Positions 6,371-64,000 of a stretch of 64,000 nt of DNA are shown here, in pieces. The notes under the pieces were generated by a model, which saw only the letters and a list, made by a program, of their open reading frames with translations, ran no database searches and was not told the origin of the DNA. The stretch comes from Minisyncoccota bacterium (lineage in GTDB: Bacteria > Patescibacteriota > Minisyncoccia > Phycocordibacterales > UBA2100), in NCBI GenBank assembly GCA_035708165.1, contig DASSSZ010000003.1, positions 23,954-87,953 of the forward strand, given 5' to 3'. Each line of letters starts with the position of its first letter. Positions within the stretch are counted from its first letter, which is position 1. The position numbers were made by a program, and so were the translations under genes.

Positions 6371-7141
6371 ATGACAGGGCATGCTATCCTGACCCTATAC
6401 GCTATGAGCTACGGGACGCTCATCCTCATCGGCATCGCGGCGACGGCGGTAACCGCGCTCGGCGGCTGGCTTGCATTGCGGCTGCGCGACCGGCTGCATC
6501 TCATCATCGGCTTCTCCGCCGGTGCCGTCCTCGGCGTCGCGTTCTTCGACCTGCTGCCCGAGGCATTCAGCCTCGCGGGCGGGCGGGATCCGGCTGCGAC
6601 AGGCGCGCTCCTGGGCTGCGGCTTCCTCATCTACCTGCTCGTGGACCGCATGCTCTCGATGCATGCCGGGCACGGGCATGGGGATCCTGATGAGGCGCAT
6701 GCAGGCGCGCATCGCGGCACGCTCGGCGCTGCGGCGCTCTCGATCCACAGCTTCCTCGACGGCCTCGCCATCGGCTTCTCCTTCCAGGTATCCGCCGCCG
6801 TCGGCGCGATCGTCACGATCGCGGTCCTCACGCATGACTTCTCCGACGGGATCAACACCGTGAATCTCTCGCTCATGGGTGGCAGCGAGCGGCGCGCGCG
6901 CTGGTGGCTGCTCGCTGATGCGCTCGCGCCGCTCCTCGGCATCGGCGCGACCTTCCTCGTGCGCGTGCAGGAAACCGCGCTCGGCATCCTGATCGCGCTC
7001 TTCTGCGGCTTCTTCCTGTATATCGGCGCGGCCGAGCTCGTGCCGGAGAGCCACCATCGGCACCCGCACCTCTGGACGACCGCCATGACCGTCTTGGGAA
7101 TGGCCGTCCTCTTCGCGGCCATCCGCCTCGCATCCGCCTAG
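6371..7141 (+). CDS. ZIP family metal (zinc) transporter
   Basis: HGHGDPDEAH His-rich loop, HSFLDGLAIG and HDFSDG motifs. Start ATG at 6371 inside ORF 5612..7141. Confidence 0.85.
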   Translation: MTGHAILTLYAMSYGTLILIGIAATAVTALGGWLALRLRDRLHLIIGFSAGAVLGVAFFDLLPEAFSLAGGRDPAATGALLGCGFLIYLLVDRMLSMHAGHGHGDPDEAHAGAHRGTLGAAALSIHSFLDGLAIGFSFQVSAAVGAIVTIAVLTHDFSDGINTVNLSLMGGSERRARWWLLADALAPLLGIGATFLVRVQETALGILIALFCGFFLYIGAAELVPESHHRHPHLWTTAMTVLGMAVLFAAIRLASA

Positions 7142-55339: not shown

Positions 55340-55590
55340 ACTACTAGATGAGTGGGGTGAGATAATTAACGCTATTCCCGATGATACCACCATTAAGGGA
55401 GCTGCACGGAGCGGCAGCGAAGCCCTGTGGATACGGGGGGTGGCCGGCGCGGCTCTGTCCGAGTCCGAAGTTTCTATCTGCGGGCTACTCGGGATTCAGA
55501 CTTTGCAGGTCAAGCCCTGTAAGGGTATTTTGGCACCTTCTCGCGGAGTTATTTGAGGTGTTCAGGTCGCAAGCATAAAATCAGTCCATC

Positions 55591-56268
55591 ATGAGTATCA
55601 TACGTTTTGCAGTGGGAACCCGAGATGATCTACGCTCTTCCGTATGGCGCTTATGGGCTAACAAGAACGACTTATATCTAGCAGCCCGTTCGCATGCAAT
55701 GATTTCAAAATTTAGTTTTCACGAGTCTGGGAAGTATCGATTCGCAGTGAATAGCGCGGTTGAACGAGAAAACGATGCGAGTGATCGGGCGTTGTATAAA
55801 TGGACACGCCCATCCGAATTCGCCCCCGGTTGGACTCGTTGTTTCGGAATACTCGTTCCACAAAGAGTTACTCGATCACCTTTCGGAATCAGCTTCGATG
55901 AGAATAAAGCAGTTGAGCTTGTTAGCCCCCCTGCCAAGGGTAAGAAGGTTATTTTCAACATCATCCTTTCCCACAAAGCGGCTAAGCCCGAGCATGTAAT
56001 CCGCGGCTCAGCTCACAAAATAAAGATTTTGGGGCGGATCGAGATGCTGCGAGAGATTGCATGGCTAGTCACTTTTGAGGATGATTTTGGTCCCACGGAG
56101 GAGGCAGTGATTCAGGACCATTTCGACAAGCTAAAAATCCATCTCAAACCAGGGAGCACTGGAGAAGGGATGCGGTACACCTTCCTTCATGCTATTGAAC
56201 AGGGCGAGACACCCTTTCTAATTGACATAGAGCTCGGCAGGGAAAATCTAGATATCTCCGCTGTCTAA
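55591..56268 (+). CDS. hypothetical protein (island orphan)
   Basis: 225-aa ORF with island codon usage. No recognised domain. Confidence 0.5.
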   Translation: MSIIRFAVGTRDDLRSSVWRLWANKNDLYLAARSHAMISKFSFHESGKYRFAVNSAVERENDASDRALYKWTRPSEFAPGWTRCFGILVPQRVTRSPFGISFDENKAVELVSPPAKGKKVIFNIILSHKAAKPEHVIRGSAHKIKILGRIEMLREIAWLVTFEDDFGPTEEAVIQDHFDKLKIHLKPGSTGEGMRYTFLHAIEQGETPFLIDIELGRENLDISAV

Positions 56269-56300
56269 GTGCCCGGGTCTGTCCGATCAAAAGTACTGAC

Positions 56301-56314
56301 TGCGGAGAGGGAGG
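56301..56314 (-). repeat. direct partial copy of tRNA-Ser 3' acceptor end (TGCGGAGAGGGAGG)
   Basis: Identical to 56485..56498, the 3' terminus of tRNA-Ser. Confidence 0.5.
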
Positions 56315-56410
56315 ATCCGTCCTGACGGTCACTAAGCTCGCTGCGCTCGCTAAGTGCCGCGGGACACGGCTCGCCGGCAAGCAGCCTCCCTACAGTCGGC
56401 TCTTGTATAC

Positions 56411-56434
56411 CGGCTCCGCCGTTCGAATCCCTCC
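56411..56434 (+). repeat. inverted partial copy of tRNA-Ser T-loop plus acceptor 3' strand
   Basis: GTTCGAATCCCTCCCTCTCTCGCA versus tRNA-Ser GTTCGAATCCCTCCCTCTCCGCA (one inserted T). Lacks 5' T-stem, so not a functional tRNA. Confidence 0.55.
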
Positions 56435-56486
56435 CTCTCTCGCAACATGCAACAAACCCGAAGCTTCGCTTCGAGTTTGGCAGTTG

Positions 56487-56573
56487 CGGAGAGGGAGGGA
56501 TTCGAACCCTCGAGACCGTTACCAGCCTGCCGCATTTCGAGTGCGGTGCCTTCGACCACTCAGCCACCTCTCC
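56487..56573 (-). tRNA. tRNA-Ser (anticodon CGA), type II long variable arm
   Basis: Reverse complement: acceptor GGAGAGG/CCTCTCC, anticodon arm CCGCA-CTCGAAA-TGCGG, long variable arm, T-arm GAGGG-TTCGAAT-CCCTC. Confidence 0.8.
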
Positions 56574-56672
56574 GTGGTATGTCGCCATCGGGGTCGAATC
56601 CGACGTGCCTCGTACGATACCATATTTATAAAAGTTTATAAAAGCCAGAAAATACGCTACTATTCGCACGGC

Positions 56673-56744
56673 GGCCCTATCGTCTAATGGTTAGGACAGC
56701 GCCCTTTCACGGCGTAAATCCGGGTTCGATTCCCGGTAGGGTCA
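56673..56744 (+). tRNA. tRNA-Glu (anticodon TTC)
   Basis: Acceptor GGCCCTA/TAGGGTC (one G-U), anticodon arm GCGCC-CTTTCAC-GGCGT, T-arm CCGGG-TTCGATT-CCCGG. Confidence 0.7.
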
Positions 56745-58129
56745 CAAGAAGCAACAAAACGGCTTTGCAGAGCTGCAAATCCTTTTTTGCACTTATAATC
56801 CAACGTATTTTCTGTCAGGGTGAGTTCGGAAAAAATCACACGAAGTATTTTGTCTTTCTCATGCGGTTCGGCCTCTGAGTAAACAACTGCGGCGTTTTTT
56901 AACAGTTCGGAAAGCAAAATTACATCTTTGATGGTTTCGCGCATCGCCACGTCCGAGGCGTTTTCATTATCTTTGAGTTGATTGAGTTCGTTTGTGAGCC
57001 GAGCTTCTTCTGCGACGTATCCTTCGGGTGTGTACACGCCAGTTTTCAGAAGCACGAGACGATTGCCGTTGAGATACGCCAGCTCCTCGCGGATTTGCTT
57101 CTTCTTGCGCTCGGCCGCATCGAGCTGACTCATACGCTTTGCCTCCAACAATGCAATGTCGGTATTCGCCCGCGCGTCAATTTCCGCAAGCTCCTCCTCG
57201 GTAAACGAAAGCTTGGTAATCAATTCCTCGGTCTTCGCTGTCAGGTAGTCGAAGTTGAAGCTCTTGAGCGAGTTGGTGCACTCGCGGGAGCAACGAGCGC
57301 CGTAGTACAAAATCCCTTTCTTTACATATGGAGTGTAGACGCGACCACAAACGGCACAGAAAGCGAATCCTCGCAGCGGATGCTCTAGCACCTCGATGTA
57401 GTGAACACTCTTGTTGCGCTTCGCAAGCCGCTCCTGCACACGATTGAAAAGCTCCTCGGGAATAATTGCCTCGTGGCTGGTGCTCGGTATCCACTCACGA
57501 TTCTCATCGAGTACCTTGCCTGTGTAATAGCGGTTCGTCAGGATTTTGTGGATGGTGTTGTACGTCGGTAGGCGGCTTATCGCTTCAATATCAACTCGTA
57601 CATCGTCTTCCTCCTCAAGCAACATCTCCTCTTTTGTTCGACGACGGCGCATCGGTGGCATAGTAAATCCCTGCTCGATAGCCCATCGCGCAAGGTCGTG
57701 CAGGCTCCATTCGCCAGTATCGGCAAGCTTCGCAAGCTGCAAAATAATAGAAGCGCGAACAGGGTCTTTAGGCTTCCAGTCCATATTGCCCTCGTTGAGG
57801 TAGCCAACAGGCGCTTTGTTAGTGGAGAGTCCGCGCGAACGGGCGTTTTGAATGGTAAGGGTGACTTTCTCGCGGGTCACGCGAGAGTGGTGCTCCGAGA
57901 ACATACCGTCTATGTCCATATGCAGTTCGCCAGAGCTGGTCTTGTCGTACTGTGCGAACGCGAAGCGGATATCCGCTCCCGACTTCATTAGTTTACGCAG
58001 AATAGTATCGTCGCCCTTGTTGCGGCTCGCTCTATCCCAGCAGAGAAATATCGCGCCCCTGAAGTAGCCCTTGCTTACAAACTCCGCGAGGCGATAAAAC
58101 TTTGGGCGCTCGACTCGGTACTGCACCAT
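56684..58129 (-). CDS. large serine recombinase, 5'-truncated (catalytic Ser-containing N-terminus absent)
   Basis: Matches distal resolvase catalytic domain (LCWDRASRNKGD, MFSEHHSRVTREKV, PVGYL), recombinase domain, zinc-ribbon (CAVCGRVY...CSRECT), coiled-coil. About 60 N-terminal aa including YxRVSTxxQ not encoded upstream in any frame. 3' end runs antisense through tRNA-Glu. Confidence 0.75.
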   Translation of the reverse strand: MVQYRVERPKFYRLAEFVSKGYFRGAIFLCWDRASRNKGDDTILRKLMKSGADIRFAFAQYDKTSSGELHMDIDGMFSEHHSRVTREKVTLTIQNARSRGLSTNKAPVGYLNEGNMDWKPKDPVRASIILQLAKLADTGEWSLHDLARWAIEQGFTMPPMRRRRTKEEMLLEEEDDVRVDIEAISRLPTYNTIHKILTNRYYTGKVLDENREWIPSTSHEAIIPEELFNRVQERLAKRNKSVHYIEVLEHPLRGFAFCAVCGRVYTPYVKKGILYYGARCSRECTNSLKSFNFDYLTAKTEELITKLSFTEEELAEIDARANTDIALLEAKRMSQLDAAERKKKQIREELAYLNGNRLVLLKTGVYTPEGYVAEEARLTNELNQLKDNENASDVAMRETIKDVILLSELLKNAAVVYSEAEPHEKDKILRVIFSELTLTENTLDYKCKKGFAALQSRFVASCDPTGNRTRIYAVKGRCPNH

Positions 58130-58197
58130 ACCTTCCTCGAAAGTGAGGGCAGTATCGGGTTATTTCAATTGTCCGCTCGGGGCTGTAAAGTTGAGCG

Positions 58198-59121
58198 ATG
58201 GCACGCCCGCTCGGTAGCATTTCCACAAACATCGAACCAAAGAGACTCAAGCGGCTTCTGGCTCTTGAAAAAGAAAGGCGCGGTGTAGCAGAGGATAAGC
58301 TAGTATTCGTGGGCATAGCGAATCTCGCCAGCTATTACTGGTGCGCCATGCACTCGGTTCTAAAAAGTAGAGCGGATGAGGCGATGTTTTTCGGCGCGTA
58401 TCTCGCAGACCGCATCCGCTACAGCAAGGAGCTTGGCCTGATTCGGTCGCTGCCAAGGACGGACGCGGAGCTGCTACGTGTCGGCGAAGAAATAACTTTC
58501 GAGGATGTTGAGAAGTTGCTCGCAAAAAGGCCTGTCGCGTCTAGCGACGTCAGTCTGGACGCGTACAGTTTCGGTGACAGCAACGGAGGGATGCAGATGG
58601 TGATAAATCCGAACGTCTCTGCCGAACGCAGAAAGTCGCTGGAGAGCGATGCGCGACGCAATAAATTGAAGATTACCGACCTGGAGAAAGTGCCCATCGT
58701 CCGCGGCAACATGATGCACTGGAATAATCCCGAGAAGTACCGCTCTATACGCTGGAACTTCCAAGCAGGTGTGTATGTCATCGTCGGCGTACCTGATGGC
58801 ATAACGGACGATAGCGTATATGAGTACAAAACAACCAAAAGCGACTTCCTCGCGGGATTCGTGAAGCCAGTCGCTTTCGCACAAGCAGACCTGTACGGGC
58901 ACTTCTTCAGACGGTCAAAAAAACGTGTGCAGATACAGGTCATCGAAACGAGCAAAACCCAAACGTGGGAAGAACCGATAGACGAGACGCGGGTAGGAAC
59001 GTTGGTACACGACTTTGCACAGGTGGATGCAGGAAAGCTTTTCCCGCACCCTCCGAAAAGCTGGAAATGCGCCAGGTGCGAGATATGCGGCTTCGGAAAA
59101 CTCTGTCAAAAACAACAATGA
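58198..59121 (+). CDS. Cas4-like PD-(D/E)XK nuclease with 4Fe-4S Cys cluster (DUF83/RecB-nuclease family)
   Basis: N-terminal Cys (YYWCAMH), motif II D (VPDGITDD), motif III EYK (VYEYKTTK), QxxxY (QADLYGHFF), C-terminal CARCEICGFGKLC. Confidence 0.65.
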   Translation: MARPLGSISTNIEPKRLKRLLALEKERRGVAEDKLVFVGIANLASYYWCAMHSVLKSRADEAMFFGAYLADRIRYSKELGLIRSLPRTDAELLRVGEEITFEDVEKLLAKRPVASSDVSLDAYSFGDSNGGMQMVINPNVSAERRKSLESDARRNKLKITDLEKVPIVRGNMMHWNNPEKYRSIRWNFQAGVYVIVGVPDGITDDSVYEYKTTKSDFLAGFVKPVAFAQADLYGHFFRRSKKRVQIQVIETSKTQTWEEPIDETRVGTLVHDFAQVDAGKLFPHPPKSWKCARCEICGFGKLCQKQQ

Positions 59122-59732
59122 GCAAGATAAAATCCCATCTCACCATCGGCAACAAGTTCCTCGGCTCGCTTCTGTACTTCAAGGATGCGAATGGGCGGGG
59201 TCATCTCAAACTGTCGTTCAAAAACAAAATTGCGGGCTTCAACAAGGGCACGGACGTGCCGACCACGTTGCCTGTGCCCGTACAGTCGCCCGACCCCGTA
59301 AGCTTGGATGTTTCCTACAAGTTTCCCGATAGCTTGCTGGAGGTGAAGAAAGTTGCGGGCGGCAAAACCGAGCGCGAGTTCTATAACGTGCCACTACCTG
59401 TCTCCAATCTTTTATTTATGATTCGCATCAAGGACTGGCATCTCCTCGACGATGACCAACCTGCGCCAAATCCGCTGGTGCTCGCGCCTCCCGATGGGAG
59501 CAAGAGCGTCGCGGTCATCTTTTCGTTTCTCGGTGCAAATGGGCTGCCATTCGTACCTACTGGATACGTCTGCCCGCAAGGGATGGGTACGATATCTGTC
59601 CCCGAAAGTCCGCTCAATACTTTTTGCATCGGCATTGCGGCTGACCCCTCGAACCAGAGCGCCAACGGCTTCCAAGTGCAAATCCCGTTTCCTAAAGCAG
59701 AACAAGACGGGTTTTTAGGTTTGAAGCAATAA
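59118..59732 (+). CDS. hypothetical protein, translationally coupled to Cas4-like gene
   Basis: ATG 59118 overlaps the upstream stop (ATGA). 204 aa. No domain recognised. Confidence 0.55.
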   Translation: MSKIKSHLTIGNKFLGSLLYFKDANGRGHLKLSFKNKIAGFNKGTDVPTTLPVPVQSPDPVSLDVSYKFPDSLLEVKKVAGGKTEREFYNVPLPVSNLLFMIRIKDWHLLDDDQPAPNPLVLAPPDGSKSVAVIFSFLGANGLPFVPTGYVCPQGMGTISVPESPLNTFCIGIAADPSNQSANGFQVQIPFPKAEQDGFLGLKQ

Positions 59733-59750
59733 AGAATCTATAATAATTAT

Positions 59751-60209
59751 ATGGACGCATTTTTCATATTCTCGGCTCAATACTTCTTTGTCTTGTCATT
59801 GATTATTCTCGGTGCGTACTTCCTCACGCGAAAATGGCCTGCACAAAAACGGATGACGTTTTTTGCAGTGCCCGCAGGCCTGCTCGCCTATGTGCTCGGG
59901 CTGCTCGGCAATTACCTCTACTATGACCCGCGTCCCTTTGTTGCAGGACACTTCATGCCGCTCATCGCACACGCGGCCGATAACGGGTTCCCCTCCGACC
60001 ATACCTTGCTCGTTTCAACGCTCGCTGCGGTGGGCATGTACTGGAACAAATGGCTTGGAGTAATACTTTGGATTATTGCTGTTCTCGTCGCGTTTTCCCG
60101 CATATATGTCGGCCTGCATCATCCGATTGATGTCCTCGGAAGCATGGCGATTGCCCTAGTCGCGGTTTCTGCATGGCGTATAGCAATGAACTATGTTTGG
60201 AAAGCATAA
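59751..60209 (+). CDS. PAP2 family phosphatase
   Basis: Motifs KxxxxxxRP-like, PSDH, SRIYVGLHHPIDV. Confidence 0.8.
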   Translation: MDAFFIFSAQYFFVLSLIILGAYFLTRKWPAQKRMTFFAVPAGLLAYVLGLLGNYLYYDPRPFVAGHFMPLIAHAADNGFPSDHTLLVSTLAAVGMYWNKWLGVILWIIAVLVAFSRIYVGLHHPIDVLGSMAIALVAVSAWRIAMNYVWKA

Positions 60210-60864
60210 GTTTTTGAAGATTGCTTCCCTCGTTGCCGTCCTTCTTGCTTTGGGTGTAATCACTTTTTTTATACTGCTTCGGCCAGGCCCGCTTTTCTCT
60301 ACACTTCCTGCTACCACAACCGCCTCTTTCGGGCATACTGGCGACCCTATCAACATCGCCGTCGTGGGAGACAAGGGTACCATCGTGTCCGCGTTTCTCG
60401 CCGCCCATTGGCTCGTACCAGACCCGATTACTGCCTCAAGCACCGTGCGGATTGCAGAAACGAGCATCGCCAATTCCGCATACCCAACCGCTCCAGTAAG
60501 CAGCCTGTATCTATTCGGTAGAGCGCAGGATTTGGCATTTGAACTGCCCACCGACTCTGTACGACAGCGACACCACGTGCGGCTATGGCAAACTACAATA
60601 ACAATCTCTGGTAAGCCACTCTGGGTAGGTTCGGCAACGTACGATTCGGACATTGAGTTGAGCGGAACAACCGCCTTGCCGACACATCATATTTCTCCGA
60701 ACGTAGACAGTGAGCGCGACTTTGTGGCGCAATCATTTATGGACGCTGGACTCATGCAGAGCGAGACATCCAACCGCATCAGTTATCCGACGCTCTGGGG
60801 ATTCAATGGCGGCGGCGATTGGTATTTTGATGATGGACTCGTGCGTATGCTCGTATTGCGATAA
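60193..60864 (+). CDS. LssY C-terminal domain-like protein (usually fused to PAP2)
   Basis: N-terminal TM, INIAVVGDKGTIVSAFLAAHWLVPDP ... HHVRLWQT ... similar to LssY_C. Overlaps the PAP2 ORF by 17 nt in another frame. Confidence 0.55.
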   Translation: MFGKHKFLKIASLVAVLLALGVITFFILLRPGPLFSTLPATTTASFGHTGDPINIAVVGDKGTIVSAFLAAHWLVPDPITASSTVRIAETSIANSAYPTAPVSSLYLFGRAQDLAFELPTDSVRQRHHVRLWQTTITISGKPLWVGSATYDSDIELSGTTALPTHHISPNVDSERDFVAQSFMDAGLMQSETSNRISYPTLWGFNGGGDWYFDDGLVRMLVLR

Positions 60865-60873
60865 TGTGAAGTT

Positions 60874-61377
60874 ATGACCCTTGCGTCTCTCAAAAACTAC
60901 CTGCTTGAAGAAAAACACATGCACCTGTTCTTCGTGGTGAGTCTCTGGGCGAAGGGTCTATTCGCCCTGTCGGAAATAATCGGAGGCATCGCCGCGTTCT
61001 TCATAACCAAGCAGTTCCTCGTAGACATCGCACTATGGATTACCAAGCACGAGTTCGCTGAAGACCCGCACGATGTTATTGCCAACTATTTCCTACATTC
61101 GGTACAGAATCTATCAATCGGTGCACAGGACTTTGCGGCCATATATCTGCTTGGGCACGGCGTCATCAAGCTCTGGCTCATCATTGGACTTCTGCGGGAG
61201 CGGCTCTGGTACTATCCAACAGCCCTCGTCGTATTCGGACTTTTCATTGTCTACCAGCTTTACCGATATACATTCACTCACTCTATCTGGCTTTTGCTCA
61301 TCACGGTCATAGACCTCATTGTCATCGGCCTCACCTGGCACGAGTGGGGATACTTACGAAAGCACAGAATCCAATAG
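60874..61377 (+). CDS. hypothetical membrane protein (DUF2127-like)
   Basis: 167 aa, four TM. Last gene before the GC rise. Confidence 0.45.
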   Translation: MTLASLKNYLLEEKHMHLFFVVSLWAKGLFALSEIIGGIAAFFITKQFLVDIALWITKHEFAEDPHDVIANYFLHSVQNLSIGAQDFAAIYLLGHGVIKLWLIIGLLRERLWYYPTALVVFGLFIVYQLYRYTFTHSIWLLLITVIDLIVIGLTWHEWGYLRKHRIQ

Positions 61378-61500
61378 CTAGACGACCACCAGCTCTCGCA
61401 ACTCTTGGATGCTCAAGCCGATGGCGGCTCGGTATTGTCCGAGTTCGGAAAGCCACGTAAACTGGTCACAAACGGCTCGCTGTGCGTCCGCGCTGGGCAG

Positions 61501-62103
61501 CTAGGCCCCGACCGTTCCAGTCTGCACGCCGCCTGCACGCGTGTAGCTTGCGAAATAGACGCCGTTGGCAGCGACGTGATGCTCGCCGAGCGTGAAGGCT
61601 GCGGGGAGCGTGCCTTCCGCGAAAAGTCGCTTGCCGGTGCCGAGCGTGATCGGGAAGGTCATGAGCCTCAGCTCGTCCACCCAATCATGCTTGAAGAGCG
61701 TCTGCGCCAGATTGCCGCTGCCGATGCTGATGAGGTCGCCGCCATCGGATTCCTTCAGCTTCCGGATGTCGTCATCGCCTTTCAGGAACACCGAATGCTG
61801 CCAGTCAGATTCGGCAAGGGTCGTGCTCGCGCAGTATTTCGTGACGTCATTGATGCTCGGCTACGGATCCGCATGGCTCGACCAGAAAGCCGCGAAGATC
61901 TCGAACGTCTTCCTGCCGAGGAGGATGTCCGCAGGCTGCATCCACTTCTGCATCAGCGCATCGGCTTCCCGATCAGCGTCCGCGAAATACGGCGCGGTCC
62001 ATCTGCCGTATGCAAAGCCGCTCGATGCGTCTTCGTCCGGTCTGCCCGGCGCCTGCACGACGCCGTCGAGGGTGATGAACTCCTGGACGATCAGCCTTCT
62101 CAT
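61501..62103 (-). pseudogene. dihydrofolate reductase family protein (RibD_C-like), frameshifted
   Basis: N-terminal half (MRRLIVQEFITLDGVVQAPG ... ADILLGRKTFEIFAAFW) in ORF 61861..62103. C-terminal half (GDDDIRKLKESDGGDLISIGSGNLAQTLFKHDWVDELRLMTFPITLGTGKRLF) in ORF 61501..61791, different frame. Confidence 0.6.
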
Positions 62104-62183
62104 GACTAATCGTGCTCCCGGTGGCGGCGGTGTCTAGCCCGATCAGGTGCTATCGAGGGCTCGTCCGCGCTTCGATGATCGGA

Positions 62184-62483
62184 TCATGAACGCTTGCGCG
62201 CAAGGATCCCGCGCACGGAGCGGCTGATCGGCTTATCGGTGCGATGAATGCAGCCGATCCAGCAGCATGGCCGGCGCATGCCATCCTTGAGCTCGGAGAC
62301 GACGCGCCGCACATGATCCTTCCTGGTCTCGGCTTTCTTCACTGAGATCGTCCAGCAGATCCACTCATTGCGGGAAAGCGGCGTGAGGTCGTTCCAGAGG
62401 TCGCGCGCCGCGGCGTCCTTCATGAGCGCCGCGCGGAGGTCGGCGGGAATCGCATGCACGACACCGCTTCCGAGTGCTGCCAT
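62184..62483 (-). CDS. YdeI/OmpD-associated family protein
   Basis: DLRAALMKDAAARDLWNDLTPLSRNEWICWTISVKKAETRKDHVRRVVSEL signature. Confidence 0.65.
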   Translation of the reverse strand: MAALGSGVVHAIPADLRAALMKDAAARDLWNDLTPLSRNEWICWTISVKKAETRKDHVRRVVSELKDGMRRPCCWIGCIHRTDKPISRSVRGILARKRS

Positions 62484-62487
62484 GGCA

Positions 62488-62961
62488 TTACGCCGCGAGG
62501 TGCGCGGCGAGCTTATCGAACTGCTGGTTGAAGCCGTACTGCATGCCTTCGATCGCAGCGCCGGCCTTCGGGCCGATCGAGGTGACCGTGATGACGAGCG
62601 TCATCTTCGTCATGCCGCCTTCCTCGGCGAGCGTGAGGAGGGCTTCCTGCTCGATCATGGTCGCATCCTCATCGCCTTCGGTCCATGCCTTCGATGAATA
62701 GCCGAGCTTCTCGTTCGGCTCGATCGCCGTGTAGGTGGCGTCCATAGGCCAGCGCGTGCCGGCATACGGGCCCATCGCTTCGGTCGCTTCCATCACGATG
62801 TAGAAGCGGCCGCCGACGCGCAGATCCACCTCGCACTCGGGAATGCGGACATTATCCGGTCCCCACCAGCGCGCAAGCTCGCCAGGATCGGTCCATGCCT
62901 GCCAGATGCGCTCTGCGGGCGCTTCGTACGTGCGCTCGAATGTGACTTCTTTCGGTTCCAT
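62488..62961 (-). CDS. SRPBCC family protein (AHSA1/activator of Hsp90 ATPase homolog-like)
   Basis: FERTYEAPAERIWQAWTDPGELARWWGP motif. Start verified at 62959-62961. Confidence 0.8.
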   Translation of the reverse strand: MEPKEVTFERTYEAPAERIWQAWTDPGELARWWGPDNVRIPECEVDLRVGGRFYIVMEATEAMGPYAGTRWPMDATYTAIEPNEKLGYSSKAWTEGDEDATMIEQEALLTLAEEGGMTKMTLVITVTSIGPKAGAAIEGMQYGFNQQFDKLAAHLAA

Positions 62962-62992
62962 ACCCTTATGTTCCGTTAGTAGCCGTACCTGC

Positions 62993-63295
62993 TCATAACC
63001 GGACCTCGAGGCGATCGAGCCTGCGCTCCCACGCCCTGCGGCAGCTCGCGAGATACGTGTCCGCATCGGCGAGCGCCTCGGGGACGAGCGACACGAGCTG
63101 CTCCTTGCCATGCCTGGTCTTCGCGACCAGGCCCGCGCGGGCGAGTACCGAAACGTGCTTCGCTACATCCGCATACGAGAGCGGATAGGGAAGCGCGATC
63201 GCGCGGATGCTCAGGTCCTCGCGCCGCAGGCGCCGGATGATATCGCGGCGCGTCTCGTCGGCGAGCGAGCGGAAGACCGTATCCAGGTCCTGCAT
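62993..63295 (-). CDS. ArsR/SmtB-family transcriptional regulator
   Basis: LADETRRDIIRRL ... LSYADVAKHVSVLARAGLV HTH. Alternative start at 63307. Classic ArsR-AHSA1 pair. Confidence 0.8.
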   Translation of the reverse strand: MQDLDTVFRSLADETRRDIIRRLRREDLSIRAIALPYPLSYADVAKHVSVLARAGLVAKTRHGKEQLVSLVPEALADADTYLASCRRAWERRLDRLEVRL

Positions 63296-63371
63296 ACATT
63301 CTACCATATAGTTGAATGATATCCGATACCGCATGCATGCGCAAGCGATGCGGACGAGGTATGCTTGATGC

Positions 63372-63725
63372 ATGAGCACGCGCCTGGCAACGCTCGTGGC
63401 AGCCGTCCTCGGGATCGGGACCGGATTCCTCACGATCCATTCGCCCTTGGCGGCCCGTTGGGAGAGCATCTTCGTGTGGGGCGCGATCGGGCTCGTATAC
63501 GGTGCCTTGATCGCGCCTCTCGCGAAGCCTATATGGCCAGGCGCCGCATACGGCTTCTTCATGTCCATGGCATTCTTCATCGCCGGGTTCGCAGGAGCAC
63601 CGGATCGGTTCTTGGCATTCCTGCTGATCGCGCTCGCGTTCAGCATCGCGGGCGCGATCGGAGGGATCGTCGTCGTATGGCTCGGCAGCTGGCTGCGGCG
63701 GAAGCTCGCGAGGCCGAGTGCCTGA
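63372..63725 (+). CDS. hypothetical membrane protein
   Basis: 117 aa, four TM. Confidence 0.45.
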   Translation: MSTRLATLVAAVLGIGTGFLTIHSPLAARWESIFVWGAIGLVYGALIAPLAKPIWPGAAYGFFMSMAFFIAGFAGAPDRFLAFLLIALAFSIAGAIGGIVVVWLGSWLRRKLARPSA

Positions 63726-63768
63726 CCCTTCATGGTACCTTCTATACGCTAAGCGATACTTTGATCAT

Positions 63769-64000
63769 ATGAATACGTACTTCGTAGTCTTCTGCATCCC
63801 GGCGGACCTGATGGCGGATTGGGTGGAACATACGCCTGAGGATGAGCGCGCTGCGCAGAGCGATCAGATGATGCAGGCATGGGCTGCGTGGCGGGATGCG
63901 CACGCTGCCATGATCAAGGATGACGGGCAGCCCTTGGGAAAGACCAAGCGCGTGACGGCGAACGGGATCGAGGATGCGCGCAACGACCTCAATTACTACC
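63769..64000 (+). CDS. hypothetical protein (3'-partial at window edge)
   Basis: ATG at 63769. ORF runs off the window. Confidence 0.3.
   Translation, partial: MNTYFVVFCIPADLMADWVEHTPEDERAAQSDQMMQAWAAWRDAHAAMIKDDGQPLGKTKRVTANGIEDARNDLNYY

Follow-up and report, generated by a model that had tools for sequence, protein, structure and literature searches.

The stretch of DNA analyzed here, which we call the window, comprises 64,000 nucleotides (nt) of contig DASSSZ010000003.1 of a Minisyncoccota bacterium (assembly GCA_035708165.1). Two adjacent genes of this window, named here gene A and gene B, are the subject of this study. Gene A codes for a protein with the motifs of a Cas4-like nuclease, and gene B codes for a small protein. 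A sequence-only reading of the locus had described them as a translationally coupled pair, forming a candidate two-gene defense or mobile-element module. We find that the mobile-element setting holds, as that of a remnant, and that the two-gene module is not supported. A and B are probably two cargo genes of independent origin that came to adjoin each other in the remains of an integrative element.

The two open reading frames (ORFs) overlap as the sequence-only reading had described: at the ATGA junction in CAACAATGAGC the TGA stop codon of A (59119-59121) overlaps the ATG of B (59118-59120). The longest mechanical ORF in the frame of B begins at a GTG at 58965, and the in-frame ATG at 59118 gives a protein of 204 amino acids (aa). 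We take this ATG as the real start of B because the aligned homologues, 63 of 63, all begin at the position of its MSKIKSH sequence. A four-nucleotide ATGA overlap is the commonest junction between co-directional genes in prokaryotes. Furthermore, the genes coding for PAP2 and LssY_C, located in the same island, overlap by 17 nt and are packed just as tightly. Consequently, the overlap by itself is no evidence of a functional pair; it reflects tight gene packing, and co-function of A and B is not demonstrated by it.

The evidence that carries the separation of the two genes comes from other genomes and metagenomes. We sampled five loci with homologues of A (L017-L021) and, for B, 12 loci from species genomes, 31 metagenomic loci and additional identity look-ups, which gave 31-33 non-redundant loci. 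B is present in none of the five A contexts, and no neighbor is common to them. The A homologues lie next to ornithine transcarbamylase (OTCase) genes, a Y1 transposase, other transposases and metabolic genes, and the genes downstream of them, several of about 200 aa, are unrelated to B and to one another. Even the closest relative, 79% identical to A (L021), is followed by 235 nt past its stop codon that hold no B. Reciprocally, the window is the only one among the 31-33 B loci where a Cas4-like gene lies beside B.

Nucleotide comparisons place the limit between the two genes at the junction itself. Homology detected by blastn with the nearest relative of A (L021) covers 58231-59118, and homology with the nearest relative of B (L001, 85% identical in nucleotide sequence) spans 59119-59686 only; these breakpoints at 59118/59119 indicate that A and B differ in their history and were joined at the ATGA. 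The same start-codon-limited homology is shown by five other pairs of B loci, and across differing contexts the homology of B begins within 1 base of the ATG and ends 10-37 nt before the stop codon. There is no conserved motif upstream of the B start, conservation beginning at the ATG. B is mobile as a module of its own, and A and B appear to be two independently travelling genes with no conserved two-gene system between them. The test of gene-pair conservation that the sequence-only reading had called for therefore counts against the module it had proposed, since the adjacency does not recur across genomes. The PADLOC collection of defense systems gives matches of A to generic Cas4 models only and no match to B. 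Even if B should prove to be no defense, anti-defense or element-maintenance factor, this result keeps a spurious "Cas4 two-gene system" out of defense catalogues.

Gene A is, judging from its motifs and its predicted fold, a solo Cas4-like Fe-S PD-(D/E)XK nuclease outside a CRISPR context. Every motif that had been listed for it is literally present: C49 (in YYWC), D200 (in GVPDG), E209-Y-K211, Q229-ADL-Y233, and the C-terminal cysteines C291-xx-C294-xx-C297-x5-C303, so that the protein has the Cas4 catalytic motifs (D, ExK, QxxxY) and the four cysteines. When 41 sequences of the family are aligned, W48, C49, G197, P199, G201, E209, K211, Q229 and Y233 are invariant, and conservation reaches at least 90% at D200, D231, C291, C294 and C303. 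C297 is part of a 3-residue insert unique to the window protein among the aligned rows listed, the cysteine spacing in the rest of the family being C-x2-C-x5-C. The motifs suggest that D200, E209 and K211 would bind Mg2+/Mn2+ and cut DNA, that Q229 and Y233 would position the substrate, and that a structural [4Fe-4S] cluster would be held by C49 along with C291, C294 and C303 (or C297).

Curated profiles reach this family weakly. PADLOC Cas4 models match residues 165-304 with E-values from 1e-5 to 1.6e-2, and A falls short of the threshold of the curated hidden Markov models (HMMs) for Cas4 (TIGR00372 / COG1468), scoring 20 bits with TIGR00372 against a cut-off of 65. Nothing was found in Pfam at E<0.1 or in PHROGs, and a phmmer search of PDB sequences returned noise only. 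A profile of the A family gives a weak match to human EXO5 (E 0.08) at its WC and WKCxxC motifs. The AlphaFold (AF2) model of A (pLDDT 90.9) has a Cas4 / lambda-exonuclease-like fold. Its best structural matches in Foldseek are four chains of Cas4 SSO0001 (4ic1; E 1.6e-6 to 2.9e-6, probability 1.0), followed by LHK-Exo, lambda exonuclease, RecE, ACE1, type I-C Cas4, MGME1 and AdnAB. The description of A as a Cas4-like 4Fe-4S PD-(D/E)XK nuclease is thus borne out at the level of both motifs and fold.

The A protein is about 100 residues longer than a canonical Cas4 (~200 aa), owing to an insert at about residues 60-165, and it has a conserved N-terminal LEKERRG helix that is also extra to canonical Cas4. 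Its homologues form more than 140 clusters of similar length, one of them the 79%-identical relative and the others 40-53% identical; those listed are mostly of about 250-370 aa, with two of about 450 aa. They are scattered among Methanosuratincola, Micrarchaeota, Bathyarchaeia, Chloroflexus, Pirellulales, Bacteroidota and Sedimentisphaerales, and several carry the Joint Genome Institute (JGI) name "Cas4 (RecB family)". By tblastn, A has no match in 50,697 phage records, and in 72,556 plasmid records it has only matches of 29.5% identity, on two Thermoanaerobacterium megaplasmids.

Solo Cas4 genes are patchily distributed in bacteria and over-represented in the candidate phyla radiation (CPR) and DPANN, and roles in defense or repair have been suggested for them (Hudaiberdiev et al. 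2017, PMC5704561). By the definition of that study A is one of them, its five sampled contexts having no conserved neighbor. It resembles them in standing alone with no cas neighbors seen, in the D...ExK and QxxxY motifs, in its one N-terminal and three C-terminal cysteines, and in belonging to a CPR genome with relatives in DPANN, other archaea and Chloroflexi; it differs in its extra length, in scoring far below the Cas4 HMM cut-offs and in lying inside a mobile-island remnant. Cas4 SSO0001 (4ic1) and type I-C Cas4 (8d3l) have the same catalytic and Fe-S motifs as A; however, A has no array or adaptation module, is about 15% identical to them in sequence, and reaches a query-normalized TM-score of 0.35 because of its extra domain. 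Cas4-like nucleases can act with partner proteins, as does ACE1, an Argonaute-associated enzyme of the Cas4 family (PMC12094033). ACE1, which matches A in Foldseek at E ~1e-3, and EXO5 (7lw7) are Fe-S PD-(D/E)XK nucleases outside CRISPR, as A is predicted to be; in contrast to ACE1, A has no Argonaute nearby, B is unrelated to prokaryotic Argonaute, and the adjacency of A and B is not conserved. The archaeal Solo-Cas4 of M. mazei is reported to bind [4Fe-4S] and to cleave double-stranded DNA with Mn2+/Mg2+ (PMC12501428).

Its sequence and model suggest that A most likely acts on DNA ends or on nicked DNA, by degradation or resection, and it may serve in innate defense against incoming DNA, or in end processing, in a lineage rich in stand-alone Cas4. 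We regard it as an ordinary, though long-form, solo Cas4-like cargo gene. For the nuclease, consequently, little changes, as it is one more solo Cas4-like nuclease of a type documented in CPR/DPANN. The long-form subfamily (~300 aa), with an extra domain that no curated model covers, could be added to databases.

Gene B had been described as a partner with no recognizable domain that may be undescribed, and this holds in the four HMM libraries searched (Pfam, PHROGs, PADLOC and NCBIfam), none of which gives a match. Its homologues form 70 clusters, 47-88% identical and nearly all of about 195 aa, and an exhaustive HMM search, covering 1.84 billion representatives, extends the family to remoter relatives of 200-226 aa; by tblastn, B is absent from the 50,697 phage and 72,556 plasmid records. 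The dN/dS values of B, 0.04-0.14 in seven pairs, show that it is a functional protein-coding gene, and it is strongly conserved under strong purifying selection. Its AlphaFold model (pLDDT 88.6, pTM 0.85) is all-beta, with 13 strands, and has no convincing match among solved structures; Foldseek against viral structures gives nothing at E<0.1. The protein has a basic N-terminal half (net +8) and an acidic C-terminal half (net -6). The C-terminal 70-90 residues weakly resemble Calx-beta repeats (PF03160). A profile of B (about positions 100-191) matches giant proteins made of Calx-beta repeats, with 4-7 repeats matched in each of them, and hhalign between PF03160 and the C-terminal half gives a probability of 76% and an E-value of 2e-5, in a test that is circular.

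Our best guess is that B is a ligand-binding or nucleic-acid-binding beta protein taking part in conflict between the element and its host, or between the element and phages. A role as a single-strand annealing or single-stranded DNA-binding (SSB) partner of an exonuclease, following the lambda Exo/Beta model, was considered and rejected, as this has no fold support and the partners of B are mostly not exonucleases. One copy of B, 86% identical to the window protein, lies at 6001-6606 of L055 (ENA contig_75085), surrounded by Ros/MucR, phasin, outer-membrane protein (OMP) beta-barrel, Phage_AlpA and PIN genes that are typical of Alphaproteobacteria, which implies a recent transfer of B across phyla. 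A small conserved protein without a known fold is a more useful outcome of this analysis than the nuclease.

The surroundings of the pair in the window are collected in Table 1. The low-GC island in which the two genes had been placed is confirmed by its composition, and the serine recombinase does adjoin them, although truncated at its N-terminus.

Table 1. Features of the island carrying genes A and B (positions in the window)
Feature	Position	Strand	Size or evidence
Low-GC island	~55,450-61,400		GC 0.45-0.56 vs flanks 0.60-0.68 (composition profiles)
Orphan ORF at the left island edge, facing the tRNA-Ser 3' end	55591-56268	+	225 aa; ORF list
tRNA-Ser 3'-end fragment, direct copy	56301-56314		14 nt; blastn-short of the tRNA against the window
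tRNA-Ser 3'-end fragment, inverted copy	56421-56439		19 nt; blastn-short of the tRNA against the window
tRNA-Ser (CGA)	56486-56573	-	ARAGORN
tRNA-Glu (TTC)	56673-56745	+	ARAGORN
Large serine recombinase, 5'-truncated	56684-58129	-	Pfam Resolvase + Recombinase + Zn_ribbon_recom
Gene A	58198-59121	+	307 aa
Gene B	59118 (ATG)-59732	+	204 aa
PAP2 phosphatase	59751-60209	+	Pfam E 4.8e-14
LssY_C	60193-60864	+	Pfam E 6.5e-52
DUF2127 membrane protein	60874-61377	+	Pfam E 2.1e-31

The Pfam Resolvase match of the window recombinase begins at profile position 48 of 145. Compared with nine recombinases from B loci, the protein is missing about 80 N-terminal residues, including the YxRxS motif with the catalytic serine, and tblastn finds no remnant of this part upstream of 58129. 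Intact recombinases are present in L005, L007, L011, L027 and L031. The window enzyme is, from its sequence, probably inactive, and the island consequently looks immobilized. The 3' end of the recombinase gene runs 62 nt into the opposite-strand tRNA-Glu, and a recombinase 3' end also overlaps a tRNA 3' end in L025 and L031 (both tRNA-Val), which suggests that in this family of elements the attachment (att) site is inside the coding end of the recombinase. tRNA-Glu is the probable integration target of the element; no second copy of the tRNA-Glu 3' end was found in the window. The two tRNA-Ser fragments, located between the 225-aa ORF and tRNA-Ser, are probably scars of earlier integrations. 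Searches of Pfam, PHROGs, PADLOC and NCBIfam gave no match to that ORF, whose place, facing the 3' end of tRNA-Ser, is taken by B in L005, L007 and L008. The right half of the island (59751-61377) is filled by the tightly packed, membrane-associated trio of PAP2, LssY_C and DUF2127, found beside B in none of the other B loci examined; this trio may be separate cargo.

The same association of B with recombinases and tRNA genes is seen elsewhere. At least 10 of 33 loci have a large serine recombinase no more than four genes away from B, and in about 15 loci B or its operon is bordered by tRNA genes. A convergent tRNA-Ser lies about 110 nt downstream of B in L005, L007, L008, L014 and L024, and a tRNA lies upstream of B in L011, L012, L025, L027, L035, L045, L046 and L050, the one upstream of the B operon in L012 being a homologue of tRNA-Glu. 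The cleanest intact example of this family of elements is found in L031. It is 5.4 kb long, carries B, a serine recombinase of 598 aa and four or five small ORFs that are unknown, and ends on both sides in a perfect 19-bp direct repeat derived from the 3' end of tRNA-Val (1234-1252 and 6676-6694). By description, and not on the basis of a homology test, such elements resemble phage-inducible chromosomal islands (PICI), P4-like satellites and tycheposons (bioRxiv 10.1101/2020.12.28.424599), which are likewise small islands at tRNA 3' ends with a terminal recombinase and variable or defense-type cargo, the tRNA 3'-end direct repeat of L031 being a further likeness. Within the limits of that comparison, the case described here differs in its large serine recombinase, the 3' end of which overlaps the tRNA, and in its CPR host; furthermore, the element of the window is truncated, and the window contains no replication or packaging genes.

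The host flanks of the island (1-55000 and 61500-64000 of the window) have about 65% GC, unusually high for a metagenome-assembled genome (MAG) of Patescibacteria/Paceibacteria. Among named sequences, those most similar to the LepA of the high-GC flank belong to Kaiserbacteria, Patescibacteria, Wolfebacteria and Paceibacterota, and A and B match exactly the MAG proteins VFL98_02260 and VFL98_02265 of "Candidatus Paceibacterota bacterium" at NCBI. These matches identify the host as a CPR bacterium of unusually high GC that carries the island within its genome. A chimeric contig as the source of the GC shift is ruled out by the high GC on both sides and the Patescibacteria-type LepA in the flank.

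The window locus looks like a decayed, immobilized element at a two-tRNA (tRNA-Ser/tRNA-Glu) integration hotspot. The explanation that we propose is that a small integrative element inserted at this hotspot in a high-GC Paceibacteria genome, that its recombinase lost the catalytic N-terminal part, so that the island is probably fixed in place, and that A and B would be cargo of independent origin, abutting by chance with an ATGA overlap. B would be an autonomous single-ORF cargo, usually last in a host operon or directly after a tRNA gene, and it would work whatever the identity of the gene upstream.

Several observations weigh against this explanation. The sample of A contexts comprises only five loci, and the ORFs of the related loci come from a simple greedy calling script, so that some small neighbors may be spurious. 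No att repeat bounds the window element, and its right boundary was set by GC content only. Furthermore, 20 of 31 B loci have a tight co-directional ORF upstream of B (overlapping, or with a gap of no more than 80 nt), and the neighbors of B are enriched for PD-(D/E)XK, HNH, HEPN/DUF4209, PIN, Schlafen and PDC-S18 proteins. This enrichment could mean that B cooperates generically with conflict effectors instead of sharing a hotspot with them.

The neighbors in question are diverse. As neighbors of B we find a transmembrane-anchored Mrr_cat protein (L001), transmembrane-anchored DUF2726 proteins (L005, L007, L008, L009, L024 and L056), DUF4209/HEPN proteins (L003 and L033, and at position +2 in L016), a weak HEPN match (L048), transmembrane-anchored Trypsin_2 proteins (L006 and L044), a PG_binding_1 protein with a signal peptide (L002), a Schlafen AlbA_2 protein (L025), a radical S-adenosylmethionine (radical-SAM) protein (L050) and a DUF4238 protein (L053). 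An HNH_5 gene lies directly downstream of B in L012 and L034, and a PIN protein lies near it in L055. The PADLOC candidate defense system PDC-S18 (E 2e-100) is found beside B in two unrelated loci, L045 (1441-2358) and L008 (2852-3763), and several further neighbors are unknown proteins. DUF2726 is the most frequent partner, forming with B a conserved block in at least six loci of different Paceibacteria-type MAGs. This block contains a transmembrane-anchored nuclease (175-176 aa, ~530 nt upstream) that overlaps B by 41 nt, and on its 3' side a terminator-like hairpin and then the convergent tRNA-Ser about 110 nt downstream.

A first alternative is an undescribed modular two-gene conflict system in which B would be the invariant sensor, regulator or self-protection part and the effector would be swappable (Cas4-like, Mrr, DUF2726, HEPN/DUF4209, HNH, protease and others), A being the effector in the window. 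We consider this a possible but clearly less likely reading. It would account for the tight or overlapping co-directional gene upstream of B in most loci, for partners that are mostly nucleases, RNases and other defense-type proteins, and for the variable gene, DUF4238 or an unknown ORF, that lies a short distance upstream of the distant B homologues P0200 and P0223 too. Terminator-like hairpins 3' of B in several loci, where B would close the operon, are in keeping with it too. However, a phmmer comparison of 29 upstream partners finds no module common to them that could be an adaptor or sensor, and some partners are secreted or membrane proteins (PG_binding_1 and transmembrane-anchored trypsin-like proteins), which would hardly act as effectors for a partner in the cytoplasm. 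In about one third of the loci B stands alone, directly after a tRNA or an opposite-strand gene (L011, L025, L027, L045 and L046). The A family is widespread without B, and B has no match in PADLOC.

Whatever the arrangement, B recurs beside nucleases and conflict genes, and little is known of the mobile elements and immunity of the organisms concerned. This recurrence of the B family in CPR elements merits a systematic survey. If B were a defense, anti-defense or element-maintenance factor, it would provide a handle on the biology of CPR mobile elements.

The presence of serine recombinases near B could also indicate another function for it, as a maintenance factor of the large serine recombinase, for instance a recombination directionality factor, with A as unrelated cargo. 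The known directionality factors of serine integrases are mutually unrelated and often have no known domain; B often lies at the edge of the element beside a tRNA att site, and in L027 B and the recombinase are the only ORFs between tRNA-Arg and the end of the contig. We nevertheless judge this function unlikely. The recombinases belong to divergent subfamilies, the window enzyme being about 25% identical to the others while B is 65-88% identical; the long B loci L001, L002, L003 and L055 have no serine recombinase within 6 kb; and B has stayed intact in the window beside a recombinase that is dead.

A toxin-immunity pair, in which B would bind and neutralize the nuclease A, is suggested by the overlap of start and stop codons, by the order of the genes, with the nuclease first and the small partner downstream, and by the lower growth reported on overexpression of an archaeal solo Cas4 (PMC12501428). 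It is very improbable here, because B remains 60-88% identical while the adjoining protein changes its fold entirely (PD-(D/E)XK, HNH, HEPN, protease), which makes specific neutralization implausible, and because A homologues occur with no B-like neighbor in the five contexts sampled; B does not look like the cognate antitoxin of a type II toxin-antitoxin system.

Finally, A is almost certainly neither a CRISPR-adaptation Cas4 nor a housekeeping AddB/RecB nuclease fragment, despite its Cas4 motif set and Cas4-like fold: its TIGR00372 score is below the family cut-off, its neighbors are the recombinase, the tRNAs, B and PAP2, with no cas1/cas2 or array association, no helicase domain is found in A or in most of the homologues listed and no helicase was seen in their five contexts, and A is a complete 307-aa protein of a full-length stand-alone family. 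The absence of a CRISPR array noted by the sequence-only reading stands for the whole window, where no direct-repeat family has three or more copies; the absence of cas genes stands for those genes of the island that were compared with Pfam, no scan for them having been made in the rest of the window.

At the right border of the island, a gene for a RibD_C (dihydrofolate-reductase-like) protein is broken into two ORFs on the minus strand, 61501-61791 and 61861-62103. They correspond to profile positions 124-195 and 3-55, respectively, with the middle of the domain missing, and together they represent a probable pseudogene.

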